A DNA stretch of 64,000 bases from an uncultured SAR86 cluster bacterium (GCA_902528485.1 CABZTA010000002.1:559-64558), one strand, 5' to 3'; shown: positions 27,271-64,000, numbered from the stretch's first letter. A program made the numbers and translations. Notes: generated by a model from the letters alone, not told the origin.

Positions 27271-27731
27271 ATTTCGAAGCAATTTTTTATGATTTCGATG
27301 GCGTAATGACCGACAATACTGTACAGATTTCTCAAGATGGTTCTGAGTTTGTGAGAGTCAATCGAGGGGATGGATTGGCTATTTCAGAAATTAAAAAATT
27401 AAAAATTTACCAAGCTATAATCTCTACAGAAAAAAATCCAGTAGTTAAGGCCAGGTCAGAAAAACTTCAAATCCCATGCTTTCAAGGTGTCTTGAACAAA
27501 CTTAATGAGGTAAATAATATCTGCGAAGCAAAAAAGATTAATCTTAAGAATTCAGCATTTATTGGAAACGATATTAATGACAAAGAAGTCATGGAGTCTA
27601 TTGGTTTATCAGCTTGTCCTTCAGATTCAAACCAGACTATATTAGGCATTTCAGATATCATATTGCAATCCAAGGGCGGAGATGGAGTAATCCGGGAATT
27701 TTATGATTACATTTTAGGAGAAATAAGATGA
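27267..27731 (+). CDS. HAD-IIIA phosphatase of the KdsC family (ulosonate-phosphate phosphatase)
   Basis: 154 aa. FDFDGVMTD, RDG-like GDGLAI and GNDINDKEVMESIGLSACPSDS align with E. coli KdsC LDVDGVLSD ... GDDLIDWPVMEKVGLSVAVADA. Confidence 0.8.
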   Translation: MNFEAIFYDFDGVMTDNTVQISQDGSEFVRVNRGDGLAISEIKKLKIYQAIISTEKNPVVKARSEKLQIPCFQGVLNKLNEVNNICEAKKINLKNSAFIGNDINDKEVMESIGLSACPSDSNQTILGISDIILQSKGGDGVIREFYDYILGEIR

Positions 27732-28561: not shown

Positions 28562-28575
28562 TATCAACTTCGTAA

Positions 28576-29325: not shown

Positions 29326-30299
29326 ATGTTCTTGTTACAGGAGGATCTGGATTTATCGGATGCCATTTAATAAAAAATTTGCTGAATGAAGGTCATGCTG
29401 TAACTGTAATCGATAATTTTAGTACAGGTCGAAAAGAAAATCTTTCTGACTCTTTAAACAAAATAAAGCTAATTGAAGCAGATATTTCTATTCGAGGGGA
29501 ATGGTGTAAAGCATTTAAAAATATCGATTGGGTTGTCCATCTAGCTGCTCTTGCAGACATAGTCCCATCTATTGAGAAACCTAGTGATTATTTCGAGGCT
29601 AATGTCACAGGAACACTAAATGTTCTAGATGCATCTAGAAAATATGGAATAAAGAAATTAATTTATACTGCTTCTTCCTCTTGTTATGGGATTCCAGATA
29701 ATTATCCTACAACAGAAGATCAGAAAATTGATACTAGATATCCTTACGCCCTAACTAAATATCTTGGAGAGCAGCTTGTTCTCCATTACGAAAAAGTTTA
29801 TAAAATTGAATCAGTGTCTTTAAGGCTTTTTAATGTTTATGGTACTAAATCAAGAACTTCTGGGACTTATGGTGCTGTTTTTGGAGTCTTCTTAGCACAG
29901 AAACTTTCTGGAAATCCTTTCACAGTTGTAGGAGATGGTAAACAAACCAGAGACTTTACTTATGTTACAGATGTTGTTGAAGCTATAAAAAAAGCCTTGC
30001 TAGCTAAGATCTCAGGAGAAATTATCAATATTGGTTCTGACAATACTTATACAGTTAATGAACTTGTAAAACTATTAAAAGGGGAGGTAGTTTATATTCC
30101 AAAGAGGCCAGGAGAGCCAGATTGCACTTGGGCCGATATCACAAAAGCAAAAGAATTATTAGGTTGGAGGCCAAAAGTTTCATTATCCGATGGAGTAAAA
30201 TTGCTATTAGATGATATAAATTATTGGAAAGACGCTCCTGTTTGGGATGAAAGATCAATAAGTGTTGCAACTAAGAGATGGTTTGAATATCTGAGTTAA
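29322..30299 (+). CDS. NAD-dependent nucleotide-sugar epimerase/dehydratase (extended SDR)
   Basis: VLVTGGSGFIGCHL, ASSSCYG and YALTKYLGE motifs. 325 aa. Confidence 0.8.
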   Translation: MNVLVTGGSGFIGCHLIKNLLNEGHAVTVIDNFSTGRKENLSDSLNKIKLIEADISIRGEWCKAFKNIDWVVHLAALADIVPSIEKPSDYFEANVTGTLNVLDASRKYGIKKLIYTASSSCYGIPDNYPTTEDQKIDTRYPYALTKYLGEQLVLHYEKVYKIESVSLRLFNVYGTKSRTSGTYGAVFGVFLAQKLSGNPFTVVGDGKQTRDFTYVTDVVEAIKKALLAKISGEIINIGSDNTYTVNELVKLLKGEVVYIPKRPGEPDCTWADITKAKELLGWRPKVSLSDGVKLLLDDINYWKDAPVWDERSISVATKRWFEYLS

Positions 30300-30302
30300 T
30301 TT

Positions 30303-31823
30303 ATGTCTAGCAAAATTGTTCAATTGGAAACCTTGAAGAAAATAAGCTTGGATTTAAAAAAAGATGGGAAAAGAATCATTCATTGTCATGGTGTTTTTGA
30401 TCTTCTTCATATAGGTCACATTAAACATTTTTCTGAAGCAAAAAAGAAAGGAGATATTCTAATAGTTACTCTTACTTCAGATGAATTTGTGAATAAAGGG
30501 CCAAACCGGCCCGCTTTTAAAATTTCACATAGGCTTGAATCAATTTCATCATTGGAAGATGTTGATTATGTGGCTGAAAACAAATGGCCTACTGCTGAGA
30601 AAACAATCCAGATTATCAAACCTGATATTTATTTCAAAGGTCCTGACTATAAAGAAAATGAAAAGGATGTCACTGGCAATATAAAGAAAGAGATTTCATC
30701 TTTAAAAAAATATGGTGGGAAGATTGAATACTCAAAATCAATTACATTCAGTTCAAGTAATCTTATTAATAAATACTCAGATCTTTACAACGAGGATCAA
30801 AAAAATTTCCTAAAAGAAATATCTAATAATTTTGATGAAAACGATTTTCAAGAATCATTTAAAAAGTTTAGTGATTTAAAAATTCTTGTTATCGGCGAGA
30901 CAATTATAGATCAATATATTTTCTGTGAGACTATAGGGAAATCGGGAAAAGAGCCAATGTTGGTTCTTCGTGAACTGGAGTCTAACAATTACTTAGGGGG
31001 AGCTGCTGCTGTGGCAAATCATTTGAGTGAATTTTCAAATAATATTTCATTTTTAACTTGTATTGGTCAAGCTAATACACTTTCAGATTTCATATCTAAT
31101 AATCTAAATAAAAAAATTAAGGCCAAGTATTTGAAGAAAAAAGATGCCCCTACAATACTTAAGAAGAGATTTATTGACAAAGTTAGTGGAAATAAAACAT
31201 TAGGAGTTTATTCGCTAAATGACGAAAATCTTCAGCCCCCTCAAGAAACAGTTGTTCTGAATCATTTAAAGGACATTAAAAAATATGATTTAGTGATTGT
31301 CGCTGACTATGGTCACGGTTTCATAACTAAAAAAATAGCTAACTTTATCTCTAAAACCTCTCCGTTTCTTTCTTTGAATGCACAAATCAACTCATCCAAT
31401 AGTGGGTTTCATTCTTTAAATAAATATTCAAAATGTGATTCTATAATCATTAATGAAAGTGAGTTAAGACATGAAATGCGCAGCCGACAAGGAGATCTTA
31501 AAAAGTTGATGTTAAAGCTTTCTCAAAATCATCGAGCGAATTATATTGTTGTTACTAGAGGAAATAAAGGCTCTCTTCTCTTCAATAGTAAAAAGAATGA
31601 ATTTATTGAATGCCCAGCTTTTGCTTCTAAATTAGTTGATAAAGTTGGCTCTGGAGATGCAATGTTGCCCATTTTATCTATGTCTTTAAAATCTAAATTA
31701 AAAGATAATATATCATTATGGTTCGGATCTTTGGCAGCTGCCCAATCGGTAGAATCTATTAGTAATAGTAAATGTGTAGATAAAACTGAAATGCTTAAAA
31801 CAATCCAGCACGCATTAAAATAA
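30303..31823 (+). CDS. Bifunctional heptose-phosphate nucleotidyltransferase / PfkB sugar kinase (HldE-like with inverted domain order)
   Basis: The N-terminal CHGVFDLLHIGHIKHF...SDEFVNKGPNRP resembles HldE domain II. The C-terminal ILVIGETIIDQY...LGGAAAVANHL...VGSGDAM resembles HldE domain I. Confidence 0.75.
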   Translation: MSSKIVQLETLKKISLDLKKDGKRIIHCHGVFDLLHIGHIKHFSEAKKKGDILIVTLTSDEFVNKGPNRPAFKISHRLESISSLEDVDYVAENKWPTAEKTIQIIKPDIYFKGPDYKENEKDVTGNIKKEISSLKKYGGKIEYSKSITFSSSNLINKYSDLYNEDQKNFLKEISNNFDENDFQESFKKFSDLKILVIGETIIDQYIFCETIGKSGKEPMLVLRELESNNYLGGAAAVANHLSEFSNNISFLTCIGQANTLSDFISNNLNKKIKAKYLKKKDAPTILKKRFIDKVSGNKTLGVYSLNDENLQPPQETVVLNHLKDIKKYDLVIVADYGHGFITKKIANFISKTSPFLSLNAQINSSNSGFHSLNKYSKCDSIIINESELRHEMRSRQGDLKKLMLKLSQNHRANYIVVTRGNKGSLLFNSKKNEFIECPAFASKLVDKVGSGDAMLPILSMSLKSKLKDNISLWFGSLAAAQSVESISNSKCVDKTEMLKTIQHALK

Positions 31824-34406: not shown

Positions 34407-35234
34407 ATGCCCAATAAAATATCTAATCCACCTTTAGATGAAAGATCAAATTTCTTAAGAAGTCTTGTAGTCAGGGCTTTGCAAGGAGGTAACAGAGGTC
34501 ACATAGGATCCTCAATGTCCTTGATAGAAATTTTAAGAGTACTTTTTGATGATATTCTTAAATTTAAATCTAACGATCCCTCTTGGGAAGACAGAGATAG
34601 ATTAATTTTAAGTAAAGGACATGGCTGCTTAGCTTTGTATGCATTGCTTGCTGATAAAGAGTTTTTTAGTTTATCTGAGCTGGATAAATTTTGTCATAAC
34701 GATGGAATGCTCGGAGGGCACCCAGAAAGAAACAAAATTCCAGGAGTAGAGGCGTCTACCGGAGCTTTAGGTCATGGTTTATCAATAGGCGTAGGAATGG
34801 CTTTAGCCTGTAAAATTAGAAAAAAAAGTAGCAAGGTTTTCGTTATTGTTGGTGATGGTGAAATAAATGAAGGCTCTGTTTGGGAGGCAGCCATGTGTGC
34901 AGGAAATCATAATCTTGAAAATTTAATCGTGATGATTGATTATAATAAAATTCAATCTTATGGATTCACAAAAGAAGTCGCAGATCTAGAACCTTTAGTG
35001 GATAAATGGAAAGCATTTAATTTTAATGTTTCTGAGGTTGATGGCCACAATATAGAAGACATAAGATCTGTTCTTAAAAAAAAATCCTCTAAAAAACCTT
35101 TAGCGGTTATCTGTCACACTGTAAAAGGAAAGGGAATAGGTTTTGCTGAAAATGACCCTAAATGGCATCACAAATCCAACCTAGAGGATTCTGATATTAA
35201 AGACATGTATAAATCCCTTAAAGCAGAAATTTAA
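34407..35234 (+). CDS. Transketolase, N-terminal (ThDP pyrophosphate-binding) subunit
   Basis: 275 aa. GHIGSSMS, SKGHG, GALGHGLSIGVGMA and GDGEINEGSVWEA motifs of split transketolases. Confidence 0.88.
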   Translation: MPNKISNPPLDERSNFLRSLVVRALQGGNRGHIGSSMSLIEILRVLFDDILKFKSNDPSWEDRDRLILSKGHGCLALYALLADKEFFSLSELDKFCHNDGMLGGHPERNKIPGVEASTGALGHGLSIGVGMALACKIRKKSSKVFVIVGDGEINEGSVWEAAMCAGNHNLENLIVMIDYNKIQSYGFTKEVADLEPLVDKWKAFNFNVSEVDGHNIEDIRSVLKKKSSKKPLAVICHTVKGKGIGFAENDPKWHHKSNLEDSDIKDMYKSLKAEI

Positions 35235-35236
35235 AA

Positions 35237-36157
35237 ATGAGACCTACAAGCCTAAATTGTGTTTATGAACTAGCTCAAAAAGATGAAAGAGTAATTTTTA
35301 TAGGCTCTGATCTTGGTCCTGGAGTTTTAGATGATTTCAAAAAAAATATTCCAGAAAGATTTTTTATGGAAGGAGTAGCAGAACAACATATCGTTGGCAT
35401 GGCTGCTGGTATGGCACTGGAGGGTTTTATTCCTTATGTCAATACAATCGCAACTTTTCTAACAAGGAGATGTTTTGAACAAAATATGATTGATCTAGGA
35501 TTACACCGGACTAATGTGAGGTTAATTTCAAATGGAGGAGGTCTAGTTTATGCTCCTTTGGGGCCAACCCATCTTGCCATAGAAGACATATCTATAATGA
35601 GGACTATACCTAATATGACGATCGTTTCTCCAGCAGATGCCAATGAAATGAGGAGATTCATGATGCAGACAATAGATTATGAAGGTCCGATATACATTAG
35701 ACTGGCAAAAGGCTATGACCCAATAGTCACTCCAGATGATATTCCCTTTAAAATTGGAAAAGCTCTCAAAGTACAAGATGGTAACGATGTATTGTTAGTA
35801 ACTACTGGAATTACCTTGGGTATTGCCAAAGAAGTGTCTGATGTTTTAAAAAAAGAAAATATAAATTGCTCTATTCTTCACATGCATACTCTAAAGCCTA
35901 TTGATGAAGAAGCCCTAATCCAGTCATCAAACGAAGTTCAGTCAGTAATTACTCTCGAAGAACATACTATCGTTGGAGGCCTAGGAAGTGCATGTGCTGA
36001 ATTAATACTAGAAGAAGGTATAAACATCAAAAATTTTAAAAGGATTGGAATAAATGATCTCTTTCCATCTGGTTACGGTTCCCAAGCAGACATGATGAAA
36101 AGAAATGGTTTATCAGTTGAGAATGTTATTAGTACTATTAAAACTTTCAGTAAATAG
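35237..36157 (+). CDS. Transketolase, C-terminal (pyrimidine-binding) subunit
   Basis: 306 aa. FFMEGVAEQHIVGMAAGMA, GPTHLAIEDISIMR and a C-terminal transketolase-C domain. Confidence 0.88.
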   Translation: MRPTSLNCVYELAQKDERVIFIGSDLGPGVLDDFKKNIPERFFMEGVAEQHIVGMAAGMALEGFIPYVNTIATFLTRRCFEQNMIDLGLHRTNVRLISNGGGLVYAPLGPTHLAIEDISIMRTIPNMTIVSPADANEMRRFMMQTIDYEGPIYIRLAKGYDPIVTPDDIPFKIGKALKVQDGNDVLLVTTGITLGIAKEVSDVLKKENINCSILHMHTLKPIDEEALIQSSNEVQSVITLEEHTIVGGLGSACAELILEEGINIKNFKRIGINDLFPSGYGSQADMMKRNGLSVENVISTIKTFSK

Positions 36158-37873: not shown

Positions 37874-39310
37874 ATGTCATCACTGATAGTTGATTTAGAT
37901 GGAACTCTCACTGACACAGATTGTTCTGTTGAGTCTCTGCTTTCTGCTGTAATTAAAAATCCACTTATTATTTTTTATTCAATATTTTGGTATTTCAAAG
38001 GAAAGCCTTATTTAAAGAAAAGACTTTTTGACGCTTCTAATTTTCATGTTAAGAATTTACCTTTCAATGAGTCTGTTATAGAAATAATAAAGGATGCAAA
38101 AGTTCAAAATAATAAAATCTATCTTTTTACTGGATCGACTCAAAAGATAGCAGACGAGGTATCAGATCATTTAAATCTTTTTGATGGGTCCTTTGGCTCA
38201 AATGAAAAAATCAATCTCACTTCATACAATAAACTCATAAAAATAAGAGATATAATTGGAAATGAACCATTCTCTTATGTTGGAAATTCTAAAGCTGACT
38301 TACCTATCTGGGAAGAAGCTGAAAAAATATACATAGTTTCTAACTTTGGAGAAAGCCTAAAAAATAAATTGAAAAATAAGGCACCAAAAGTCATTCTAAA
38401 ATCTGAGAATTCATATCTTAGTTTCATAAAGATTTTGAGACCTTATCAGTGGTTCAAAAACGTATTGGTTTTTGTACCTTTCTTTATATATGAATATTCA
38501 ACATTAAATGAATTTTGGATGTCAATTATTGGCTTCATCTCTTTTAGCCTTGCTGCTTCATCTGTCTATATTCTGAATGATCTTTTAGATGTTTCCTCTG
38601 ATAGAGAACACCCAACAAAAAAGAAAAGACCTTTCGCATCTGGGGAACTAAACCTACTTCACAGTTTTTGGATGATTCCAGTTTTATTGATTCCTAGTTT
38701 AATTCTTGCATCATCAGTATCTTTTAATTCTCTTATTATTATTTCTTCTTATCTACTAGTAACATTTCTTTATTCTGTTTATTTAAAAAAGGTTCTCATT
38801 TTAGATATATGCATTCTTGCAAGTCTTTATACACTTAGACTGATCGGTGGTGCTATTTTTATTCAATCCGAATTTTCACTTTCTCCATGGCTAATAAACT
38901 TCTCTATATTTTTCTTTTTCTTTTTAGCGTGCATAAAAAGAGAATCGGAATTGATAATAGGAATTGATTCAAAAAAAGAAAATTCACGAAGATCTTATTT
39001 CGAAGAAGATAAAAAAATTATCTCAACTCTCTCGGTATCTTCTGGATTATTATCAGTATTAATTTTGTTGCTTTATGCAGAAAATTCCATGAATTCTTCA
39101 GCTTTTTCTTCTCCAATATTATTATGGTTTTTAAGTCCTGTGTTTTTATATTGGATATCAAGATTTTGTATTATTTCTTCAAGAGGTTTCATAAAAGAAG
39201 ATCCTTTATTTTTTGCAATAAAAGATAGGGTAAGTATTTTATTTGCAATTTTAGTTTTCACAATTATTTCCGCAGCGAAGTTTTTAGAAATTAGTTATTT
39301 TCTGAATTAA
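37874..39310 (+). CDS. HAD phosphatase domain fused to a UbiA-family polyprenyl-phosphate phosphoribosyltransferase (Rv3806c-like)
   Basis: N-terminal LIVDLDGTLTDTD ... YVGNSKADLP. The C-terminal YILNDLLDVSSDREHPTKKKRPFASGEL parallels M. tuberculosis Rv3806c NDVRDVEADREHPTKRFRPIAAG. Multiple TM helices. Confidence 0.8.
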   Translation: MSSLIVDLDGTLTDTDCSVESLLSAVIKNPLIIFYSIFWYFKGKPYLKKRLFDASNFHVKNLPFNESVIEIIKDAKVQNNKIYLFTGSTQKIADEVSDHLNLFDGSFGSNEKINLTSYNKLIKIRDIIGNEPFSYVGNSKADLPIWEEAEKIYIVSNFGESLKNKLKNKAPKVILKSENSYLSFIKILRPYQWFKNVLVFVPFFIYEYSTLNEFWMSIIGFISFSLAASSVYILNDLLDVSSDREHPTKKKRPFASGELNLLHSFWMIPVLLIPSLILASSVSFNSLIIISSYLLVTFLYSVYLKKVLILDICILASLYTLRLIGGAIFIQSEFSLSPWLINFSIFFFFFLACIKRESELIIGIDSKKENSRRSYFEEDKKIISTLSVSSGLLSVLILLLYAENSMNSSAFSSPILLWFLSPVFLYWISRFCIISSRGFIKEDPLFFAIKDRVSILFAILVFTIISAAKFLEISYFLN

Positions 39311-39312
39311 AA

Positions 39313-41439
39313 ATGACGTACAAATATCTAATAGGATTTGTATTTATTCTTTTTTGTATCCTAATTTTTTTATCAACTAACTTTTGGTCAGGCCTTAATC
39401 CCTCAAATTTATCAGATTGGGAGGATTGGAATTATTGGAGCCAAGTATCTCAAGAGAACCAGTTTTATCATCCATTTTTAATAAATCCCTACCAAGGGCT
39501 TTTTGGATATTCATTACCAGTAAACTCATTTCTAAATCCAATTTTTCTAGTTGCTAATCTTTTGAGCAATATTGACAACTATCATATTACGACGAAATTG
39601 CTTGTTGTGATGGTTGAGTCACTTTGTTTAATAATTTTTTTAAAAAGTCTTAAAGTAAATAATTTCTCTATTATTTTTACTTCTTTGCTAAATATTTTTT
39701 TATTCACTTCTTTATTCAATTTATCAGATTGGTCTTTGAGAATTTTTGAAAACTTAATAGACGTTAGTATTTTAAAATCTTTTATTTTATTAATTTTCAC
39801 CTTATTAATTTCTAAGCCTTTATTTTTTAATAACAAAAAGGTTTTTTTAACTCTTGCTTTGTTTTTTTGGGCTTATGCACTAAATCCTTCTTATTTATTA
39901 ATTTACATAGCCTTACCAGCATTTTTTCTTTTAATATTTTATGTTTTTGATGCCAAGAAAAACTTTTTATTTTTTTATAAAAAACAACTGTTAATTCTGA
40001 TTATTTTTTTTGTGCCTCTATTTATTGTCTATTATATTTTTTCTGGAATTTCTGCTAGAAGTGTCTTTGGTAACGAGATAACAAATGAAGTTCAAACTTT
40101 TGATTACTTGAATGTTATATTTTTTAGACCTTCACCTTACTCGGGTTTATTTGCATTTATAACTCTTATCGCCTCATTTTATTTAGTCTTCACGAAGCAC
40201 AAAAGTTTTGGGATTGCCACTATTTCAACCTTTGTTTTATTACTCATCATTGGAGTGTTATACACTTTTACAGGGATAGTATGGAAATATCCAAGTCCAG
40301 TTTATCTTGAGCAGTCAATTTACTTAATTTTTTTAGCATCTATTGCCCTTTGCATCAAAAAAGAGAATATTCTGATAAGCATATTTTTAATTTCATCATG
40401 CAGTTTTTTAGCTTATAAAATTTCCAAACCTAGAATAGCTGACCTTTTTGATAATGAAGGGATTTATCAATCAGCAGACCTTTTGAGAGTTGATGCTCCA
40501 ATTTTTGACATAATTAATGAATTAAGATTTGAAAATGAGTTCAAGGGATCTTTTGCAACAATATTCCCAATGAAAAATAATTTTTATTTAGGCAAAAAAA
40601 TAGAAAATAATTATGAAAAATCGTGGGTTTATGTAAGAAATATGCAAAGGCATTTATACAATAATATTGACAAGAAAATATTTACAACCTCTTTATGGGA
40701 AAACAGGATTCCTTCTTTAGAGGATCATAATCACCTTATTTCTCCATTTAAATATTTCTTCTTTTCGAGGCTTTTATCTTATCCTCAAGATTATCAGAAA
40801 AAAAACTGGCTATTTGCATCAAAAGTAGATTTAACAATCTTAAAAATGCTAGGCGTAAAATATTTATTAACAAATCAGATCTTGGATGAAAAAGAATTAT
40901 TTTTAAAATCATCTGAATCAGATGACTATCGTTTATATCAGTTAAGTAATCCTAATTTAGGAGATTACTACGTTAAAAAAATTGATTTCTTTGAAGACTC
41001 GTCTGAATTTATGAATCGCTTCAATCAGAAAAGTATAGATTTTAGATCCACAGCTTATCTCCATCAGAATGATCAACTTAAACTTCATAAAGACTTATCC
41101 ATCGGGCAAACAGAAATCTTTGAAATTGATAAAAACTCAATAAGAATAAAAGCTAAAACTGAGAGTGCTTCCTTATTAATTTTACCCATAGAATATAGGA
41201 ATATATTTAAATCTAATGAAAGCAATAACTTTACAATATTTAGAGTTAATTTATTTCTCACAGGAATTTATTTTGAAAAGAGTATCGATTTAAAAATTAA
41301 GTATAATTCCTCATTTCTTAAAACATTAAATGGATTTAAAAAGGATATTTCTGATCTGGATGGTTATAAATTTGAAGAAGGTTTCATTACTTATCCTTAT
41401 GATGCTTATCAACCAAAAAGCTTATTTTTAAATGAATGA
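39313..41439 (+). CDS. Large polytopic membrane protein with a C-terminal soluble domain, candidate GT-C glycosyltransferase
   Basis: 708 aa. About 11-13 hydrophobic segments occupy the first 380 aa or so, followed by a hydrophilic domain of about 330 aa. The first loop carries the acidic motif SDWEDWNYW. It lies between the UbiA-like and DprE1-like genes. Confidence 0.45.
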   Translation: MTYKYLIGFVFILFCILIFLSTNFWSGLNPSNLSDWEDWNYWSQVSQENQFYHPFLINPYQGLFGYSLPVNSFLNPIFLVANLLSNIDNYHITTKLLVVMVESLCLIIFLKSLKVNNFSIIFTSLLNIFLFTSLFNLSDWSLRIFENLIDVSILKSFILLIFTLLISKPLFFNNKKVFLTLALFFWAYALNPSYLLIYIALPAFFLLIFYVFDAKKNFLFFYKKQLLILIIFFVPLFIVYYIFSGISARSVFGNEITNEVQTFDYLNVIFFRPSPYSGLFAFITLIASFYLVFTKHKSFGIATISTFVLLLIIGVLYTFTGIVWKYPSPVYLEQSIYLIFLASIALCIKKENILISIFLISSCSFLAYKISKPRIADLFDNEGIYQSADLLRVDAPIFDIINELRFENEFKGSFATIFPMKNNFYLGKKIENNYEKSWVYVRNMQRHLYNNIDKKIFTTSLWENRIPSLEDHNHLISPFKYFFFSRLLSYPQDYQKKNWLFASKVDLTILKMLGVKYLLTNQILDEKELFLKSSESDDYRLYQLSNPNLGDYYVKKIDFFEDSSEFMNRFNQKSIDFRSTAYLHQNDQLKLHKDLSIGQTEIFEIDKNSIRIKAKTESASLLILPIEYRNIFKSNESNNFTIFRVNLFLTGIYFEKSIDLKIKYNSSFLKTLNGFKKDISDLDGYKFEEGFITYPYDAYQPKSLFLNE

Positions 41440-42745
41440 TCATAATTATTTTTCATGGGGAAGGTTGAAAAGAGCATCTGCTCCACAAGTTATTAAGCCA
41501 AATAATTATGAAGATTTACTTAAAAACCTAAAAAAACATAGAAAGCTTGGCAAAGTTTTACCAATTGGATTAATGAGATCATATGGTGATAGCTGCCTTA
41601 TAAAAGAAGGTTTATTACTAGATATGACTGAATTTAAAAAGATAAATAGCTTTGATGAACAATCAGGACTAATTAATGTTCAGGCAGGGATTTCTTTGGA
41701 CGAGCTTTTAAAGTTTATAGTGCCTAAAGGATGGTTTATTCCGACATCACCCGGAACAAAATATGTAACCATTGGTGGCGCCATAGCTAATGATATTCAT
41801 GGAAAAAACCATCATAAATTTGGATCTTTTTGTAATTCAGTCAAAAAGATAAAAGTCTTATCAACTGAGGGCAAATTACAGCTTCTTGAAGATCCTGATG
41901 ATGAAATGTTCAAGGCAACATGTGGTGGTCTAGGATTGACAGGATTAATTTTAGAAGCAGAAATAGAATTAGCAGAAATCAAAAGTTCATACCTTAATGT
42001 AGAAACAATAAAATTTAACAATTTAAAAGAATTTTTTGAAATTGAAAAACAAAGTATAGAAAATTATGAATTTACAGTTTCTTGGATTGACCTCACAAAT
42101 GAGAGTAAATATTTTGGTCGAGGATTATTTCAAAGAGCAAATTGGGCAGATGATAAAGATCTTACGCCTCACTCTTCTTTCAAAATTCCAATTCCTTTTG
42201 GCGTAGGATTTAATTTAGTCAGCAAAAAGCTCATGAAATTATTCAATTTTCTGTATTTTTCTAAAAATTTAAAAAAGAAAACAAAAGAAAAAACTCATTA
42301 TGGCACTTTTTTTTACCCCCTTGATGTCTTGAGAGGATGGAATAAGCTTTATGGAAAAAATGGATTTTCTCAATATCAATTTGTATTGCCAGAAGAAAAT
42401 TCAAAGACTGGTTTAGATGAAATCCTTGAAGTTCTCAAAAATGATAAATTCATGCCTAGGCTATGTGTTTTAAAAACTTTTGGCAAGATACCTTCATTAG
42501 GACATTTAAGTTTTCCACTAAAAGGAACTACCTTGGCTATGGATTTTCCCGTTAATATTAAAAAAAATAAGAATCTCTATAGCAAACTTGATGAAATTGT
42601 TATTAAAAACGGTGGAAGAATTTATCCTGCAAAAGACAGCTTTATGAATAGTAAAACTTTTCAGAGTTCTTATAAAAATTTTCATAAATTCAAGAAATTT
42701 AAAGATACGCATATCTCGTCAGATTTCTGGGAAAGAGTTTCATGA
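41432..42745 (+). CDS. dprE1: FAD-dependent polyprenylphospho-ribose 2'-oxidase (DprE1-like)
   Basis: [35 protein letters not shown] (Mtb [26 protein letters not shown]), [19 protein letters not shown]. Confidence 0.85.
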   Translation: [437 protein letters not shown]

Positions 42746-43491
42746 GTAAAAACCTAGTTATTCTAGGAGCGACTTCTGAAATTGGTATGGAAGTTAATAA
42801 ATTGTTTGCTCAAGAAGGTTGCAATTTCATATTAGTAGGAAGGTCAGAAGAAAGCTTAAAAACACATAAAGAAGTTTTAAAACATCGTGGTGCAAATAAG
42901 GTAATTTCTTATTTCTTAGATTTTGCTGACGAGAACGATGAAGTAAAACTTTTTAATCTTTTTGAAGAGAAATTAGAGGGACCTATAGACATCATTTTTT
43001 TAAATTATGCAGTCCTTGGAAGACAAGAAGAAGAAGAAGTAAATTTATCTTTTGCAATGAAAAATATTTATATAAATTTTATTTCAGCTTTCAAATGGGC
43101 TTTTGCTGCAGGAAATTATTTCAAGGATAAAGATGGAAGATTTATATATTTAAATTCTGTAGCAGCTGAAAGGGGCAGGAGAGGTAATTTTTTTTATGGA
43201 GCATCGAAATCTGGAATGAAGACAATCATGGAAGGATTTGCCAACAAATTTGCCTATAGCAATACTTTTTTTATCAATATTAAGTTAGGCATAATTAAAA
43301 CTAGAATGAGTAGTGAAGTAAAAGGAGTTTCATCCTTTTTAGCATACGATCCAATAAAAACAGCCAGAAAAATTTTCTTGATAACCAAACTAAATAAACC
43401 AAGGAGCTCTTACTACCTTCCTTATTTTTGGAAATATATAATGCTCATCATAAAATTACTCCCTGAGAAAATATTATTTAAAATTAATTAA
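42742..43491 (+). CDS. dprE2: Polyprenylphospho-2'-keto-ribose reductase (DprE2-like SDR)
   Basis: VILGATSEIGMEV, NSVAAERGRRGNFFYGASKSGM (Mtb [22 protein letters not shown]), IIKTRMS, and the C-terminal hydrophobic tail WKYIMLIIKLLPEKILFKIN (Mtb [21 protein letters not shown]). Confidence 0.85.
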   Translation: MSKNLVILGATSEIGMEVNKLFAQEGCNFILVGRSEESLKTHKEVLKHRGANKVISYFLDFADENDEVKLFNLFEEKLEGPIDIIFLNYAVLGRQEEEEVNLSFAMKNIYINFISAFKWAFAAGNYFKDKDGRFIYLNSVAAERGRRGNFFYGASKSGMKTIMEGFANKFAYSNTFFINIKLGIIKTRMSSEVKGVSSFLAYDPIKTARKIFLITKLNKPRSSYYLPYFWKYIMLIIKLLPEKILFKIN

Positions 43492-54747: not shown

Positions 54748-55629
54748 TTGAAAAACTTACTTAAAAAAATTCTACCTCCATTTTTCTTTGATTTTTACTA
54801 TTCTTCAAAATCATTTATTTACTATTACAAATACAAAAAATATTTCTCAAAAAATTTACGTTTCAAAGAATCTATGGACGATCAAAGATGTTTTATAGTT
54901 GGATCTGGAAATTCAATTGGAGATATTGATTTAAAATTACTTAAAAATGAAAATATAATTTTTTTAAATTCTTTTTTACACCATGACCAATATTCAGATT
55001 TAATTAAATCAAACAAAGGAAAAAAATTTCATGTATTCACTCCATTGCATGAATTTAAAAATAAAAAGATTCTTGAAAATTACATTGACGAATTTAAAAA
55101 TCCTATCTTAAAACACGTTACTTGCTTTTTTGGAATAGATGACTTTTCTACAAACTATATAGAAGAATTTAAGAAAAAGAATTTGGAAATTCATGACAGT
55201 TCATTCTATGTTTATTGCACTAAAAAATATGACGATATTGGGTCTATATCTCCAGATGACTTTGAGCTGTCTAAGAATATATGGTCTCCTAAAACAAGTT
55301 CAAACCTTGCTTTACAAATAGCCATTTATATGAACTTTAATGAAATTTATCTCATAGGCATTGATCACGATTATATGAATACAAAGCATTCAGAAAATAT
55401 AAAAATTATAAAAAAGGGCACTTTGGTTGAGGATGAACAAGATCAATGGAATGATTTGTTGGATGATGGAAGAATTAATCAAACCTCTTTCCTGAAGGAT
55501 TTAATTCCTGTAATCAAGCCCATGGAAATCATTGAAAAGAAGTTTCCTGGAAGAGTTAAAAATCTCTCCAAAAGGTCTTTCTTTTACTGTCACGATCAAG
55601 TAGATATCAGTGATCTAGAATTTGAATGA
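54748..55629 (+). CDS. Sialyltransferase-like (Cst-II/GT42 or DUF115-like) putative ulosonic-acid transferase
   Basis: CFIVGSGNSIGDIDLKLLKNENIIFLNSF and TSSNLALQIAIYMNFNEIYLIGIDHDY parallel Cst-II VIIAGNGPSLKEIDYSRLP..DVFRCNQF and ITSGVYMCAVAIALGYKEIYLSGIDFY. The start is either TTG 54748 or ATG 54874. Confidence 0.4.
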   Translation: MKNLLKKILPPFFFDFYYSSKSFIYYYKYKKYFSKNLRFKESMDDQRCFIVGSGNSIGDIDLKLLKNENIIFLNSFLHHDQYSDLIKSNKGKKFHVFTPLHEFKNKKILENYIDEFKNPILKHVTCFFGIDDFSTNYIEEFKKKNLEIHDSSFYVYCTKKYDDIGSISPDDFELSKNIWSPKTSSNLALQIAIYMNFNEIYLIGIDHDYMNTKHSENIKIIKKGTLVEDEQDQWNDLLDDGRINQTSFLKDLIPVIKPMEIIEKKFPGRVKNLSKRSFFYCHDQVDISDLEFE

Positions 55630-58354: not shown

Positions 58355-59473
58355 ATGAGTATCTATTCAAATATTAAAGATCTTGCACGAGAAATTTATG
58401 TGAATTACTCGCTTCCAATGAAGGTAAGTGAAACAGGAAATAAAAAGGTACTTATTTCCTATATTAAATCTCCATTTTATTCGTCAACAAAAAAAATATT
58501 TCATAGTAACTATCTTGAATCAAAAATAATAAGTGAAAGTTTTACTGACTTGGGCTTTAGTGTGGAAGTCGTAGACTATAGATGTAAAAGGAAAATAAAT
58601 TTTGAAGAATACGATTTAATCTTTGGTTTTGGATATCCATTTCATGACTCTTTAGATATAAAGAAATTAAAAAAAATTTGTTATCTAACAGGATCCAATC
58701 CAAATTTTTCAAACTTACGTGAGGCAGAAAGAATAAGAGACTTTAAAAATGAGTTTGGCATAACTTTAGTTCCAAGAAGAGAGGCATATTGGCCATGGAT
58801 GCACGCAGCTATAAACAGTGACTTTTTGATAACTACTGGTAATTATTTTACTAAATCAACATATTTGAATCTTAGATCTGATGTACTGACTATTCCTGTT
58901 CCATTTGTTCCATCAGAAAATCATCCTACAAAAAACTTTCCTAAGGGAATTCTTTGGTTTGGAGGCGCTGGGGCCTTATTTAAAGGCCTTGATCTGACTA
59001 TAAGAGCTTTTAAGAATTTAAAATCAAATTTCACTTTAGATATTTGTGGCCCTATTGAATCTGAAACTGACTTTATGGGACACTTTGAAAATGAAATTTT
59101 TAAGGATTCAAGAATAAATTTTCATGGAATGTTAGATATATCGTCTAAAAAAATGCAATCAATTATAAATAGGAACTCCTTTGTTATTCTTCCCTCTTGT
59201 TCTGAAGGAGGAGCTTCTTCTGTTTTAACTTGCATGAATCTAGGTTTAATTCCAATAGTTAGTGAGGAATGCAGTATCGATTTGGATAACTTTGGCATTC
59301 CAATAAAAAAATTAACCGTTCAGGATGTTGAAAATTCCATAAACGAAGCTTTTAAACTTGAAGAAAATGACATTCTTTATCAAAGAAGTGAAATTGAAAA
59401 ATTTCTTCATCGACAACATACATTTAACTCTGTGAAAGAAAAATTAAAAAATATTCTTCAAGAAATTATTTAG
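58355..59473 (+). CDS. GT-B glycosyltransferase (family 4-like)
   Basis: 372 aa. ILWFGGAGALFKGLD ... FVILPSCSEGGASSVLTCMNLGLIPIV (EX7E-like region). Confidence 0.75.
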   Translation: MSIYSNIKDLAREIYVNYSLPMKVSETGNKKVLISYIKSPFYSSTKKIFHSNYLESKIISESFTDLGFSVEVVDYRCKRKINFEEYDLIFGFGYPFHDSLDIKKLKKICYLTGSNPNFSNLREAERIRDFKNEFGITLVPRREAYWPWMHAAINSDFLITTGNYFTKSTYLNLRSDVLTIPVPFVPSENHPTKNFPKGILWFGGAGALFKGLDLTIRAFKNLKSNFTLDICGPIESETDFMGHFENEIFKDSRINFHGMLDISSKKMQSIINRNSFVILPSCSEGGASSVLTCMNLGLIPIVSEECSIDLDNFGIPIKKLTVQDVENSINEAFKLEENDILYQRSEIEKFLHRQHTFNSVKEKLKNILQEII

Positions 59474-59536
59474 GCAAATACTATTAAATCATCGTAAAAC
59501 CCTTATAATTCCAAAAAATTTTTTAATTCTAATTTT

Positions 59537-60757
59537 GTGATCATAAAGCAATGCAGGCTTTGCAAGTCGGATAGCCTTAAAAAAGTGATTGATCTTGGAG
59601 ATCATCCTCCTGCTGATACTTTTATTCCTCAAAAATACAAAGATATAGATTTACCGAGGTACCCATTATCATTAACGAAATGCTCTGCTTGCGGTCATGT
59701 CTTCACAAGTTTTTATGTATCCCCAGAAGAACGTTACCAGAGATATGAATATAGTTATGATTCTTCAAATTCAATTGTTTCAGAAAATCATTTTAAAGAT
59801 TTTGCAGAGGATGTATTAGATACCAAAGACTTTTCGCCTGATTCTTTATTTGTCGATATAGGAAGTAATGTTGGAACATTATTAACTAAATTCAAAGACA
59901 AAGGATTAAACAACGTTTTAGGGATCGAGCCATCCGAAAATATTTCGAAGTTAGCAAATTCAAATGGAATTAGAACTCTAAATTATTTTTTTGATAAAAC
60001 ACTTCAAAATAATCTAGATTTTAATAATAAAGCAGACTGTATTTTGAGTGCCAACGTTTTTAATCATACAGATGATTTAGGCGAAGTATTTGAATTAGTA
60101 CTTGATTTATTGAGCGATGAAGGAATTTTGGTTTTCGAAGTACCCTATTTACTTGATTTAATTAAACAAAGGGCATTTGATACCATCTACCATGAACATG
60201 TTCATTATTTCAGTGTTAAAGCACTGAAAGAAATTTTAAATTCTTATGATTTTGAGATAGTTAAACTAAAAAACATTGATTATATGTGTGGGTCACTGAG
60301 AGTTTTTTGTCAAAAAAAATCCTCTTCTATTTATGAAGCATTAGAAGTGGAAACATTCATAGAAAATGAAAACTCTTTCTCTCTTTTCGATGATGAAACA
60401 TATTTATCTTTTATGAAGGACATAAAAAATATGAAAATAAAATTGAATTCAGATATTGACTCAATATTGAAAAAAGGAGGCAAGATTATCGGAGTTGGAG
60501 CTGCCACTAAGGGAAATACCTTGTTGAATTTTTGTGATTTAGATCATAATAAGATCAGTTACTTGACAGATACTTCTAAATTAAAGGTTGGTAAGTATTC
60601 TCCAGGTTCCTTGATACCAATAAAACACGACGATGAAATTGATAATTCTGTTACTCATCTTCTAATCTTGCCTTGGAATTTATCTGATTACCTTGTCAAT
60701 AAACTTTCATTCATGAAGAAGAAATTTTTAATACCGCAAATGGAAAATTTAAAATGA
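59537..60757 (+). CDS. NDP-hexose C-methyltransferase (TylCIII-like)
   Basis: 406 aa. N-terminal zinc ribbon (CRLCKS...CSACGHV), a SAM domain (FVDIGSNVGTLL) and a C-terminal C-methyltransferase domain (IGVGAATKGNTLLNF). GTG start. Confidence 0.75.
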   Translation: MIIKQCRLCKSDSLKKVIDLGDHPPADTFIPQKYKDIDLPRYPLSLTKCSACGHVFTSFYVSPEERYQRYEYSYDSSNSIVSENHFKDFAEDVLDTKDFSPDSLFVDIGSNVGTLLTKFKDKGLNNVLGIEPSENISKLANSNGIRTLNYFFDKTLQNNLDFNNKADCILSANVFNHTDDLGEVFELVLDLLSDEGILVFEVPYLLDLIKQRAFDTIYHEHVHYFSVKALKEILNSYDFEIVKLKNIDYMCGSLRVFCQKKSSSIYEALEVETFIENENSFSLFDDETYLSFMKDIKNMKIKLNSDIDSILKKGGKIIGVGAATKGNTLLNFCDLDHNKISYLTDTSKLKVGKYSPGSLIPIKHDDEIDNSVTHLLILPWNLSDYLVNKLSFMKKKFLIPQMENLK

Positions 60758-61128
60758 AAAAAAAACTAGCTCCACAGTTCTCTGATGATAGAGGAGAGAT
60801 TTTAGATATATTAACTGATGAAAATATCGATGCAGTTACACTGATAACTTTTACAAAAGGTGCAACTAGAGCAAATCACTATCACAAAGAAACAATCCAA
60901 TGGAATTATGTTACAAATGGCAAACTAATTTATGCTTCTCAAGAAATTGGCGGAGTAAAAAAGGAAATAACTCTGTCCAAGGGAGACTTTGTAACTAGTA
61001 ATCCTAACGAAATTCACGCTTTTAAAGCAATAGAAAATTCTGAGTTATTGGTTCTAACTAAAGGACCAAGAGCCGGTAAAGATTACGAAGAAGATACTTT
61101 TCGTTTAGAGGAACCTATTCTTAAATAG
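60754..61128 (+). CDS. Cupin NDP-4-keto-6-deoxyhexose 3,4-ketoisomerase (FdtA/QdtA/Tyl1a-like)
   Basis: 124 aa. FSDDRGEILDIL ... RANHYHKET ... IHAFKA pattern of WxcM-C/FdtA cupins. Confidence 0.65.
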   Translation: MKKKLAPQFSDDRGEILDILTDENIDAVTLITFTKGATRANHYHKETIQWNYVTNGKLIYASQEIGGVKKEITLSKGDFVTSNPNEIHAFKAIENSELLVLTKGPRAGKDYEEDTFRLEEPILK

Positions 61129-61133
61129 ATCTA

Positions 61134-62267
61134 ATGAAAATTCCAGTTTCAAAGCCTCTGATATCAAATAAAGCTACTAAGTATGTAAATGAAGCTCTGT
61201 CGGAAAAATCTTTATCAGGTCTCTTCGGTAAATTCATTCCTAAATTTGAAGAAGAATTTGCCGATTACTGTGGAACAAAACATTCTATTACCTGTAGCAG
61301 CGGAACTGCAGCTCTTCATTTACCATTGGCTGCCTCTGGACTGAAAAAGGGAGATGAAGTTCTAGTTTCAACATTGACCAATATGGCAACTTTTTTTGCA
61401 GTTATATACACCGGTGCAAAACCGGTCCCCGTAGATATAGATACGGATACTTTGAATATAAGTTTCGAAGATTTAAAAAGAAAGGTAACAAAAAGAACTA
61501 AGGCAATATTGCTTGTTCATCTTTTTGGTCATCCTGCAGATCTTAATCCAATACTTGAATTTGCTAGATCAAATAATCTTGATGTTATTGAAGATTGTGC
61601 AGAAGCTCACGGAGCTGAATATCATGGAAAAAAAGTAGGAGGTTTTGGAAAAGCCGGATGTTTTAGCTTATTCGCAAATAAAATTATTACTGCTGGTGAA
61701 GGTGGAGTTATTACAACCAATGATGACGATCTAAATTTGACAATAAGGAACTTAAAATCTTTAGCATTCGGCGAAAAAGATAAATTTCAGCATAAAGATA
61801 TTGGCTACAACTATAGATTTTCAAATATTCAAGCTGCAGTAGCATGCGAGCAACTGGAAAATATTTCTCATTTGGTTAAAAAAAGAATAGAGATTGCTGA
61901 GTTTTATAACAAAGAATTTGAGAGCTTATCTGACTTTATTAGTCTCCCCATCCAAAGACCTCACTCAAAAAATGTTTACTGGATGTACCACATGGTTTTA
62001 AAGCCAAACGAAAAATTATTCAACAAAAGAAATGAAATTTGTAAAGAACTTTCAAAAAAGGGAATCGAAACAAGACAAGGCTTTGTTCCATTTAATCTCC
62101 AAAGAATATTCATAGATAAAAAAATGACCAAACCAAATGACTGTCCTAATGCTAATGCAATTTCTGGCTCCTCTTTTTATATACCTACAGGCCCCGATAT
62201 TTCTGAGAAGGAATTGAAATATGTTGCGTCAAATTTTTTAGAAATTATTGATAAATTGATAAATTAA
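61134..62267 (+). CDS. DegT/DnrJ/EryC1/StrS-family NDP-ketohexose aminotransferase
   Basis: 377 aa. SSGTAALHL, IEDCAEAHGA, and the lysine context FSLFANKIITAGEGGVITT. Confidence 0.88.
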   Translation: MKIPVSKPLISNKATKYVNEALSEKSLSGLFGKFIPKFEEEFADYCGTKHSITCSSGTAALHLPLAASGLKKGDEVLVSTLTNMATFFAVIYTGAKPVPVDIDTDTLNISFEDLKRKVTKRTKAILLVHLFGHPADLNPILEFARSNNLDVIEDCAEAHGAEYHGKKVGGFGKAGCFSLFANKIITAGEGGVITTNDDDLNLTIRNLKSLAFGEKDKFQHKDIGYNYRFSNIQAAVACEQLENISHLVKKRIEIAEFYNKEFESLSDFISLPIQRPHSKNVYWMYHMVLKPNEKLFNKRNEICKELSKKGIETRQGFVPFNLQRIFIDKKMTKPNDCPNANAISGSSFYIPTGPDISEKELKYVASNFLEIIDKLIN

Positions 62268-62275
62268 ATTATCAA

Positions 62276-63052
62276 ATGACAAATAAGACAAAATCAAGGT
62301 TCTCAAAGTATGCTCCTTTCTATGATTTACTTTATGAAGATAAGGATTATGGAGCTGAAGCATATTTTATTTCAGATTTAATCAAAGATTTTAAAAATGA
62401 TAAAAAACTTACTTTATTGGATGCCGGATGCGGAACAGGCATTCATGCAATAGAATTAAGCAAGCTTGGCTACATACTAGAAGGTTCAGATATCTCTGGG
62501 GAAATGATTGAGATTGCTAGAGAAAAAGTTAAAAAGGCTAATATCTCAGTAAAATTTCATAATGAATCTTTTCAAACTCTTAATAAGATAAAGGGTAGGT
62601 TTGATGTAATTCTATGTATGTTTTCATCTATAAATTATCTGACGAGCCTAGGTGATCTTGATATTTTTTTTCAGAATGTATTTTCTTTACTAAAAAAAGA
62701 TGGAATCTTTATCTTTGATTTTTGGAATGGCGAAGCTGTTGAAAAGGGATTTTCTAAAGTTAGAACAAAATCTGCAGAAAATAACTCTATGAAGATTAAC
62801 AGAAAGTCAGAAACTTCTATTGATACCGAAACCCAGGAAGTTTTTTTAAAATTTTATTTTGACTTATACGAGAATAATTCCCTGATTGATTCGTTTGCTG
62901 AAAATCACCACCTTAGATATTTTTTTATTCAAGAAATGAAAAATATTCTTTCAAAAAACAATTTAAATTTTTTATTTTCTTGTCCTTTTATGGAAAGAAA
63001 ATCAAAGATCTTCAGCGATACATGGAATATTTCTTTTGTGGTAAAAAAATGA
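62276..63052 (+). CDS. NDP-aminosugar N,N-dimethyltransferase-like (TylM1/DesVI family)
   Basis: YDLLYEDKDYGAEA..LLDAGCGTGIHAIEL and RFDVILCMFSSINYLTSLGDLD..LKKDGIFIFDFWN align with TylM1 YDLVHQGKGKDYHREA..LLDVACGTGMHLRHL and RFSAVTCMFSSIGHLAGQAELD..LPDGVVVVEPWW. Confidence 0.7.
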   Translation: MTNKTKSRFSKYAPFYDLLYEDKDYGAEAYFISDLIKDFKNDKKLTLLDAGCGTGIHAIELSKLGYILEGSDISGEMIEIAREKVKKANISVKFHNESFQTLNKIKGRFDVILCMFSSINYLTSLGDLDIFFQNVFSLLKKDGIFIFDFWNGEAVEKGFSKVRTKSAENNSMKINRKSETSIDTETQEVFLKFYFDLYENNSLIDSFAENHHLRYFFIQEMKNILSKNNLNFLFSCPFMERKSKIFSDTWNISFVVKK

Positions 63053-64000
63053 AAATTGCAGTTTTTATTGATAGTAAATTAGATTCTGGTGGTTCTTTTC
63101 AATGTTCAGCCTCAAATATAAAAAATCTCTCTCAATCTGCTCACAAAGAATTTAACTTTATTTTTTTTACAACAGAAAAGGAGAACTTATCCTTTTTTAA
63201 AGAAATTAAATGTGAAGTCAAACTTGTTAAGTTTAATTTTTTTGATTTTTTGTTCTCATACTTAAAGAGAACTTTTAAACTGAAAAGAATACTGAGAGGT
63301 TTCAGTAAATTAGATAATTTATTTTTAAAATATGAAATTGACATTGTTTATTTCGTAAACACCTCAGCATTTGCAAAAGATTTAGACCGCCATAACTTTA
63401 TTTTTACCCTATGGGATCTTTGTCATCTAGATCATCCTGAATTTCCTGAGGTAAGCAATCACGGCGAGTTTGAATCACGACAAGAATTACTGCTTAATGT
63501 CCTACCAAAGGCAACAAATGTTATTGTTGAGTCTGAGATTGGAAAAGAAAATCTAGTAAATAGATTCAATATTGAGAAAACTCGAATAAAAGTTTTGCCT
63601 GTGCTCCCATCTCTGCAAATAGAAGAATTTGATCAAAATATAAAGGAGAGTGAAATTGACATTAAAGTTAAATATTCCATTGCAGGAGATTATATTTTTT
63701 ACCCTGCACAATTTTGGCCCCATAAAAATCATATCTATATTTTAAGGGGTTTAAAAAAATTAAAAGATGAAAATATTGAAATTCATGCAATATTTACCGG
63801 TTCAGATAAAGGCAATCAAGAATATATAGAACATTGTGCACAAAAACTTAATCTTTCCAGTCAAGTTCATTTTTTAGGATTTGTAGATAACGAAGAGCTT
63901 CCTTATTTATACAAACAATCTTTAGCCTTAGTAATGCCCACTTATTTTGGACCAACTAACCTACCTCCAGAAGAAGCTTCCATATTGGAATGTCCAATCC
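63049..64000 (+). CDS. GT-B glycosyltransferase (family 4-like), with its 3' end outside the window. It is not present in the supplied ORF track.
   Basis: Manual translation from ATG 63049 (ATGA overlap with the previous stop) gives 317 codons with no stop. The product reads MKIAVFIDSKLDSGGSF ... YIFYPAQFWPHKNH ... AIFTGSDKG ... VHFLGFVDNEELPYLYKQSLALVMPTYFGPTNLPPEEA, typical of the GT4 C-terminal half. Confidence 0.75.
   Translation, partial: MKIAVFIDSKLDSGGSFQCSASNIKNLSQSAHKEFNFIFFTTEKENLSFFKEIKCEVKLVKFNFFDFLFSYLKRTFKLKRILRGFSKLDNLFLKYEIDIVYFVNTSAFAKDLDRHNFIFTLWDLCHLDHPEFPEVSNHGEFESRQELLLNVLPKATNVIVESEIGKENLVNRFNIEKTRIKVLPVLPSLQIEEFDQNIKESEIDIKVKYSIAGDYIFYPAQFWPHKNHIYILRGLKKLKDENIEIHAIFTGSDKGNQEYIEHCAQKLNLSSQVHFLGFVDNEELPYLYKQSLALVMPTYFGPTNLPPEEASILECPI

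Follow-up and report, generated by a model that had tools for sequence, protein, structure and literature searches.

The 64,000-nucleotide stretch of DNA analyzed here (the window), from an uncultured SAR86 cluster bacterium (GCA_902528485.1, CABZTA010000002.1:559-64558), carries close to its downstream end a compact set of genes with the features of a sugar-modifying cassette. Four open reading frames (ORFs), all on the + strand, occupy positions 59537 to 60757 (406 amino acids), 60754 to 61128 (124 amino acids), 61134 to 62267 (377 amino acids), and 62276 to 63052 (258 amino acids). Their junctions are operon-like; ORF 1 and ORF 2 overlap by 4 nucleotides, and the next two gaps are 5 and 8 nucleotides. 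A fifth ORF begins with an ATG at 63049, overlapping the stop codon of the fourth, and runs through 64000 past the window end; in identical contigs its product is 397 amino acids long and contains Glycos_transf_1, the signature of a group-1 (GT4-type) glycosyltransferase. An initial annotation, made from the sequence, had described the first four genes as a C-methyltransferase, a 3,4-ketoisomerase of the cupin type, an aminotransferase and an N,N-dimethyltransferase, the last three following the Tyl1a-TylB-TylM1 order of chemistry that leads to deoxythymidine diphosphate (dTDP)-mycaminose. We found the four ORFs where it had placed them, and Pfam searches upheld its broad family calls; the mycaminose scheme itself, as described below, did not hold. 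From the evidence that follows we favor, with confidence somewhat above even, the proposal that these genes form a portable operon module that would convert a guanosine diphosphate (GDP)-linked 4-keto-6-deoxyhexose into an N-methylated 4-amino-4,6-dideoxy-3-C-methylhexose and add it to a surface glycan.

The cassette is not peculiar to this bacterium. The pattern of its cupin was found in 223 species genomes, and we counted neighboring genes in 80 cupin-bearing loci, among which 76 had room for a gene upstream of the cupin and 54 were well flanked. The order C-methyltransferase, cupin, aminotransferase, methyltransferase recurs widely, often followed by the group-1 glycosyltransferase, a homologue of which lies after the methyltransferase in many distant loci. 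Within the Proteobacteria it occurs in SAR86, Pelagibacter, Rhizobium phaseoli, R. redzepovicii, Bradyrhizobium, Betaproteobacteria, and Methylococcaceae, and elsewhere in Planctomycetes, Nitrospirae, Desulfobacterales, Sulfuricurvum, Bacteroidetes, Acidobacteriota, Chloroflexi, and candidate-phyla bacteria. Contigs identical or nearly identical to the window came from marine metagenomes, including TARA, and of the genomes that bear the cassette the nearest, at 64-70% amino-acid identity, was assembled from a single SAR86 cell, which suggests a SAR86-like marine gammaproteobacterium as the source. Three cultured carriers were found: Rhizobium phaseoli JHI366 (locus L027), R. redzepovicii 18T (L030), and Bradyrhizobium manausense BR 3351. 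The gene content also varies in informative ways. In a Thaumarchaeota metagenome-assembled genome (L087, 4303-9931), gmd, the C-methyltransferase, the cupin, a short-chain dehydrogenase/reductase (SDR), and a GT2-GtrA pair occur without an aminotransferase; in L039 (5746-9160), gmd, cupin, aminotransferase, and methyltransferase occur without the C-methyltransferase; and in L028 (286-3752), gmd is inserted between the aminotransferase and the methyltransferase. Literature searches turned up no published account of this gene combination, and nothing relevant on a pathway joining perosamine synthesis to a C-methyltransferase.

ORF 1 (59537 to 60757) matched the Pfam families Methyltransf_13 (PF08421, E 2.7e-16), Methyltransf_23 (PF13489), and Methyltransf_14 (PF08484), with E-values down to 3e-33. 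In a search of the PDB its residues 3-389 aligned with the solved sugar 3-C-methyltransferases 4rv9, KijD1, and TcaB9, the match to 4rv9 being full length at 5e-65 and 32% identity. All four zinc-ribbon cysteines (Cys6, Cys9, Cys49, and Cys52) are present in the N-terminal part, and the segment FDTIYHEHVHYF aligns with FDQIYDEHFFLF of TcaB9, placing Y218-H-E220-H221 opposite the active-site residues Y222/E224/H225. The TylCIII-like zinc-ribbon C-methyltransferase of the initial annotation is thus well founded, and ORF 1, as a member of the TylCIII/TcaB9/MtmC family of S-adenosylmethionine (SAM)-dependent enzymes, is predicted to methylate C3 of a nucleoside diphosphate (NDP)-linked 4-keto hexose. 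Enzymes of the TylCIII type require a 4-keto group and a C3 hydrogen, and all characterized members of the family need the 4-keto group. Two observations on this gene in other loci may be recorded here. L027 and L030 carry a second TylCIII-like C-methyltransferase gene (30% identity) a few kilobases downstream of the cassette, at about 13100-14360. An apparent fusion of C-methyltransferase and cupin in L073 was rejected, the long ORF in this GC-rich DNA being judged spurious since the two tblastn matches lay in different frames.

ORF 3 (61134 to 62267) encodes a pyridoxal phosphate (PLP)-dependent aminotransferase of the DegT_DnrJ_EryC1 family (PF01041, E 5.5e-110). Its best PDB match was GDP-perosamine synthetase of Caulobacter (269 bits, E 6e-79, 40.6% identity over 357 residues), and its K183 lies opposite the catalytic K186 of that enzyme, the residue mutated in structure 3dr4. 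In the same search the enzymes that aminate C3 scored far lower; QdtB gave 190 bits, the HCAN enzyme 182, and DesV 169. The best NCBIfam models were LegC (288 bits against a cutoff of 420) and, second, PseC; both scores were under their cutoffs, and the protein therefore belongs to neither family. LegC is a GDP-sugar C4 aminotransferase; PseC acts on a uridine diphosphate (UDP)-sugar. Members of the same cluster carry the IMG label 'perosamine synthetase'. A second aminotransferase subtype in related cassettes is 32-40% identical to the window enzyme, and its representative from Bradyrhizobium manausense was closer still to perosamine synthetase, at 328 bits. As both subtypes share this likeness, the aminotransferases of the cassette, judged by their sequences, appear to belong with the GDP-sugar C4 enzymes and not with TylB, and the predicted reaction is amination at C4. 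The real substrate is probably a C-methylated derivative of GDP-4-keto-6-deoxymannose.

ORF 2 (60754 to 61128) encodes a small nucleotide-sugar cupin that was harder to place. In Pfam it matched Cupin_2 (E 1.7e-8) and barely PF14667; it gave no match to the FdtA model (PF05523) at E <= 0.01 and none to the RmlC model. When a profile of 34 homologues was compared with PDB sequences, metal cupins such as oxalate decarboxylase came first, with QdtA at E 0.013 and Cap5F at E 0.1. We ascribed the higher scores of the metal cupins to the common HxH...Q/H cupin motif and did not count them as evidence for a metal enzyme. The NCBIfam match was to the C-terminus of WbcJ, at 19.5 bits. A confident AlphaFold2 model (predicted local distance difference test, pLDDT, 93.9) gave as its best Foldseek matches FdtA, QdtA, WlaRA/B, and HCAN_0198 (template-modeling score, TM, 0.77-0.81; root-mean-square deviation 2.0-2.4 angstroms; about 125 columns; 20-26% identity), with RmlC homologues and the CapF cupin domain close behind. 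H42 and H44 do not vary within the family; a profile alignment, though weak (E 0.005, probability 7%), sets them opposite the catalytic His49 and His51 of FdtA, with which the cupin shares the pattern R..HxHK...Q. The first histidine of this pair is the base in RmlC-type epimerases as well. The cupin is, then, of the FdtA type in fold and apparently in active-site pattern but not in family membership, and to that extent only does its original assignment as an FdtA/Tyl1a-type protein stand. The family has two further features of its own: identity between phyla is unusually high (50-65%), and there is an invariant C-terminal block, T-x-G-P-R-x-G-x-x-Y-E-x-D-T-x-R, with no obvious counterpart in FdtA.

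Its genomic context pointed to a different role from that of a ketoisomerase paired with the aminotransferase, as the initial annotation had it. Of the 76 loci with room for a gene there, 73 have the C-methyltransferase immediately upstream of the cupin, and in 9 of the 54 well-flanked loci, L087 among them, the two occur as a pair without any aminotransferase. Because the cupin is tied to the C-methyltransferase in this way, a Tyl1a role is disfavored. Established chemistry leads to the same conclusion, since a C3-methylated sugar has no C3 hydrogen left and a later 3,4-keto shift is impossible. Epimerization at C3 before methylation there would be erased by the enolate, and the reading that suits every context is a C5 epimerase (or 3,5-epimerase). 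We regard the cupin as probably an epimerase that partners the C-methyltransferase, giving an epimerase activity about an even chance and a ketoisomerase activity an appreciably smaller one.

Were the cupin a ketoisomerase, the cassette could follow a 3-amino route on either nucleotide, with a C3 aminotransferase, a 3-(di)methylamino-3,6-dideoxyhexose like mycaminose as product, and the C-branch at a carbon other than C3. The superposition of the cupin model on the ketoisomerases and the alignment of its histidines and motif with those of FdtA speak for such a route; it also agrees with the fact that DesVI and TylM1, which act on C3 amines, are the best characterized relatives of the methyltransferase, and with loci of the L039 type, where cupin, aminotransferase, methyltransferase, and gmd occur without the C-methyltransferase. 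We nevertheless consider it unlikely, although less so than the other alternatives below. The cupin misses the FdtA model and fits RmlC homologues and the CapF domain nearly as well in fold, and it persists with the C-methyltransferase where there is no aminotransferase; both aminotransferase subtypes are far nearer to GDP-perosamine synthase than to QdtB, DesV, WlaRG, or the HCAN aminotransferases; TylCIII enzymes need the 4-keto group, and their product could not undergo the keto shift; and the genes for a dTDP-sugar, as shown next, were not found nearby.

The sugar nucleotide was sought in the genes around the cassette. An NCBIfam scan of the whole window found no rmlA, rmlB, gmd, or manC; galE, a gene resembling galU, and several SDRs of generic type were all that it showed, in agreement with the earlier statement that neither RmlA nor RmlB could be recognized with certainty. 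Contig L002, however, is 100% identical to window positions 59001-64000 and extends 808 nucleotides further, where, after the glycosyltransferase gene, there begins a protein 97% identical to Gmd of a sister strain (L011). In L011 this gene scored 568 bits on the gmd equivalog model TIGR01472 (cutoff 415) and is followed by an fcl-like gene that, at 460 bits, narrowly misses its cutoff of 500. Among the 80 cupin-bearing loci, gmd was present within 7 kb of the cassette in 12, and a convincing rmlB-like gene in 2; rmlA was found in none. As gmd is linked to the cassette and the rml genes, with these few exceptions, are not, the precursor suggested by this context is most likely GDP-4-keto-6-deoxy-D-mannose, and the dTDP nucleotide of the mycaminose scheme is not supported.

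It may be instead that the module acts on a dTDP- or UDP-linked 4-keto sugar made elsewhere in the genome, and that gmd and fcl merely make GDP-fucose for the same glycan. The order of gmd followed by an fcl-like gene is that of the standard fucose pair, most cassette loci (68 of 80) have no gmd within 7 kb, every characterized enzyme of the TylCIII and TylM1 families uses dTDP-sugars, and PseC, the second-best NCBIfam match of the aminotransferase, is a UDP-sugar enzyme. In addition to the rarity of the rml genes, this explanation has to accommodate the fact that gmd abuts or sits within the cassette, without fcl, in the distant loci L028, L039, L060, L061, and L080, and that Per and LegC, which the aminotransferase matches best, both act on GDP-sugars. 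We give it a rather small probability, slightly below that of the 3-amino route, and retain a GDP-linked substrate for the module.

ORF 4 (62276 to 63052) encodes a class I SAM-dependent methyltransferase (Methyltransf_25, E 9e-19). The motifs claimed for it are present (YDLLYEDKDYGAEA, LLDAGCGTGIH, RFDVILCMFSSINYL, and DGIFIFDFW) and align with both TylM1 and DesVI. When a profile of 45 homologues was compared with PDB sequences, the scores in descending order were 122 bits for 1wzn, 115 for DesVI, 107 for 1y8c, 101 for TylM1, 98 for 3d2l, 93 for NmbA, 83 for KedS8, and 72 for CalS10, with generic methyltransferases of various functions at 68 or less. DesVI and TylM1 are sugar N,N-dimethyltransferases, NmbA a bacillithiol N-methyltransferase, KedS8 a C4-amino sugar N-methyltransferase, and CalS10 an amino-pentose N-methyltransferase, whereas 1wzn, 1y8c, and 3d2l are uncharacterized proteins (enzyme identities from PMC12719100). 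DesVI and TylM1 were thus the best characterized matches, aligned over profile positions 7-229 with the cap domain included. Four residues of the N-terminal YDL...KDY..EA lid (Y16, K23, Y25, and E28) are found in every family member as well as in DesVI and TylM1, and both enzymes also share W150, R176, E209, and H211 of the cap. The AlphaFold2 model (pLDDT 94.9) superposed on TylM1 with a TM of 0.79-0.86.

The strongest argument for the function of this enzyme came from its distribution. In the 54 well-flanked loci, aminotransferase and methyltransferase occurred together in 35, the aminotransferase alone in 10, the methyltransferase alone in none, and neither in 9; the association is significant by Fisher's test (p = 1.7e-5), with the reservation that the loci counted are not phylogenetically independent. 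The methyltransferase gene is usually immediately downstream of that for the aminotransferase, the ORFs overlapping or nearly abutting. Because of this strict co-occurrence, it is a fair prediction from the sequences that the enzyme N-methylates the amine made by the adjacent aminotransferase, and this part of the dimethylamino claim can be kept, the number of methyl groups added being one or two. Least probable of the alternatives, and to our minds quite improbable, is that the enzyme methylates a hydroxyl or some other molecule and the amine is left free or receives an acyl group from an enzyme encoded elsewhere, as happens in ordinary O-antigens of the perosamine type: its fold group does include C- and S-methyltransferases, peptide N-methyltransferases, and enzymes that act on amines other than those of sugars (PsmD, CcbJ, CypM, NmbA; PMC12719100), the three uncharacterized structures equal or surpass DesVI and TylM1 as matches, and TylM1 His123 is replaced by Tyr, but DesVI also has Tyr at that position, the lid and cap residues are shared, the gene is never found without that of the aminotransferase in the well-flanked loci, and the cassette has no acyltransferase.

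On the reading that we favor, the steps would run as follows. Gmd, encoded just beyond the window end, would supply GDP-4-keto-6-deoxy-D-mannose, and the TylCIII-type enzyme would methylate it at C3 by way of the C3/C4 enolate. The histidine pair of the cupin might then epimerize a carbon beside the keto group, most likely C5 by comparison with TylK and EvaD, which act after C-methylation; the perosamine-synthase-type PLP enzyme would turn the C4 keto group into an amine, to which the DesVI/TylM1-like enzyme would add one or two methyls; and the glycosyltransferase would transfer the finished sugar. The sugar so predicted is related to perosamine but is C-methylated and N-methylated, and it resembles sibirosamine or kansosamine.

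Several points weigh against this reading. The pathway has been read from genes for every member of the cassette, and an identity of 40% cannot prove the regiochemistry of the aminotransferase. The closest folds of the cupin are the 3,4-ketoisomerases, both of whose histidines it appears to have kept, and by sequence it is not an RmlC-family epimerase. To these may be added points already given: the many loci with no gmd nearby, the fcl-like gene after gmd here, which may mean that gmd simply serves fucose synthesis, the uncharacterized methyltransferase structures, and the phylogenetic dependence among the loci counted. A methylated, possibly tertiary, amine sugar on the surface glycan is plausible. 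We hold as a bolder and distinctly doubtful extension that a GDP-based route places a C-branched, dimethylated (tertiary, positively charged) amine sugar on the surface of abundant marine bacteria (SAR86-like, with relatives in SAR11) and of rhizobia, by means of small nucleotide-sugar cupins not recognized before as a family, which would turn out to be either epimerases of a new kind or the first 3,4-ketoisomerase to act on a GDP-sugar.

If the proposal is correct, the cassette represents a short path from GDP-mannose to an amino sugar with both C- and N-methylation; elsewhere such chemistry is known from antibiotics of actinobacteria and glycolipids of mycobacteria, where dTDP-sugars are presumed to be used. 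More than 200 species genomes would carry the route, with SAR86, SAR11, rhizobia, candidate-phyla bacteria, and archaea all represented; a highly conserved orphan cupin family would gain a function, and five genes, the transferase among them, would become available for glyco-engineering. Encoded in a hypervariable glycan island, a branched sugar with a positive charge at the cell surface could affect recognition by phages and grazers. Since cultured carriers exist among the rhizobia and Bradyrhizobium manausense, the idea is directly testable.

The cassette lies within a glycan island. The window, with a G+C content of about 30%, starts with the gene order pntB, gyrA, serC, pheA, hisC, tyrA, aroA, cmk, rpsA, pyrF, ggt, uvrC, pgsA, followed by the island, which is more than 46 kb long and reaches the window end. 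The same-strand run that holds the cassette is led by a gene for an MptE-like/DUF115 protein (54748-55629; a weak Pfam match, under the cutoff), upstream of which, on the opposite strand, are a Wzz-like gene and a gene for a 595-amino-acid multi-pass membrane protein. Elsewhere in the window several other groups were observed. At 37874-43491, genes for a UbiA-family prenyltransferase (497 bits, above cutoff), an unannotated 708-amino-acid ORF, a DprE1-like flavin adenine dinucleotide (FAD) oxidase (361 bits, below cutoff), and a DprE2-like SDR are grouped, resembling the mycobacterial pathway from polyprenyl-phospho-ribose to the arabinofuranose donor, here in a marine proteobacterial glycan island. 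At 34407-36157, inside the glycan locus, a transketolase is encoded as separate N-terminal and C-terminal ORFs beside a methyltransferase and a zinc alcohol dehydrogenase, and may build a two-carbon sugar branch. A heptose- and nonulosonic-acid-related set at 26614-31823 comprises gmhA and genes for a phosphatase of the KDN-9-P/KdsC type, a short NeuB-like synthase (277 amino acids), a fusion of a cytidylyltransferase with a mannose-6-P-isomerase-type cupin, and an HldE-like protein in which the order of the two domains is reversed. Finally, a nucleotide-sugar dehydrogenase ORF at 19591-20451 covers only profile positions 76-300 of 413 and is either truncated or has a mis-called start.

Among known systems, the cassette is close to the GDP-perosamine pathway (Gmd plus Per/RfbE) of Caulobacter, Vibrio cholerae O1, and E. 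coli O157, with which it has in common the adjacency of gmd, the related aminotransferase, and the same Schiff-base lysine; it differs by the addition of the C-methyltransferase, the cupin, and the methyltransferase and by the lack of an N-acyltransferase, so that the predicted sugar is C-branched and N-methylated instead of N-acylated. With the Streptomyces pathways to dTDP-mycaminose and dTDP-desosamine (Tyl1a-TylB-TylM1; DesV-DesVI) it shares the cupin fold and, by the weak alignment, the histidine pair, a DegT aminotransferase, and a DesVI/TylM1-like methyltransferase. In contrast to those pathways, its aminotransferase falls in the GDP C4 group and not with TylB, DesV, or QdtB, its linked gene is gmd and not rmlA or rmlB, and its cupin gives no match to PF05523 and goes together with a C-methyltransferase, an enzyme that those pathways do not have.

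Certain branched-sugar pathways pair a C3-methyltransferase with a cupin epimerase, as in TylC3-TylK-TylC2 for L-mycarose and EvaC-EvaD for epivancosamine. The cassette mirrors this logic in its succession of a TylCIII-family methyltransferase, a cupin, and then an enzyme that modifies C4, a position that in the aminotransferase-less relative L087 is taken by a reductase; this layout again points away from a Tyl1a role for the cupin. Cupins of the TylK/EvaD type, which act on dTDP-2,6-dideoxy sugars, are RmlC-family proteins of about 190 amino acids, whereas that of the cassette has 124 and lies outside the RmlC Pfam family. Another cupin epimerase, the C-terminal domain of CapF/WbjC, is a C3-epimerase of a UDP-4-keto-6-deoxy sugar. 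Its likeness to the cassette cupin is marginal, consisting of the weak WbcJ and Cap5F sequence matches and the fold match, and the cassette cupin is a stand-alone protein, not fused to a reductase.

In structure, the predicted product resembles sibirosamine (of sibiromycin) and N-acyl-kansosamine, which are 4-amino-4,6-dideoxy-3-C-methylhexoses, the amine being N-methylated in sibirosamine. These are actinobacterial sugars, presumed to be dTDP-based and of the L-manno configuration, and the resemblance, drawn from structures and not from a sequence comparison, extends to the 3-C-methyl and 4-amino substitution. N-acyl-kansosamine occurs in the lipooligosaccharide of Mycobacterium kansasii (PMC4403928). 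For virenose of Coxiella burnetii, a GDP-based route has been proposed in silico with gmd (CBU0689), an fcl-like gene (CBU0688), and a TylCIII-like gene (CBU0691) (PMC3539893). Although virenose has no amino group, that Gram-negative lipopolysaccharide locus, in joining gmd to a TylCIII-type C-methyltransferase, comes nearest among published ideas to the route that we propose.

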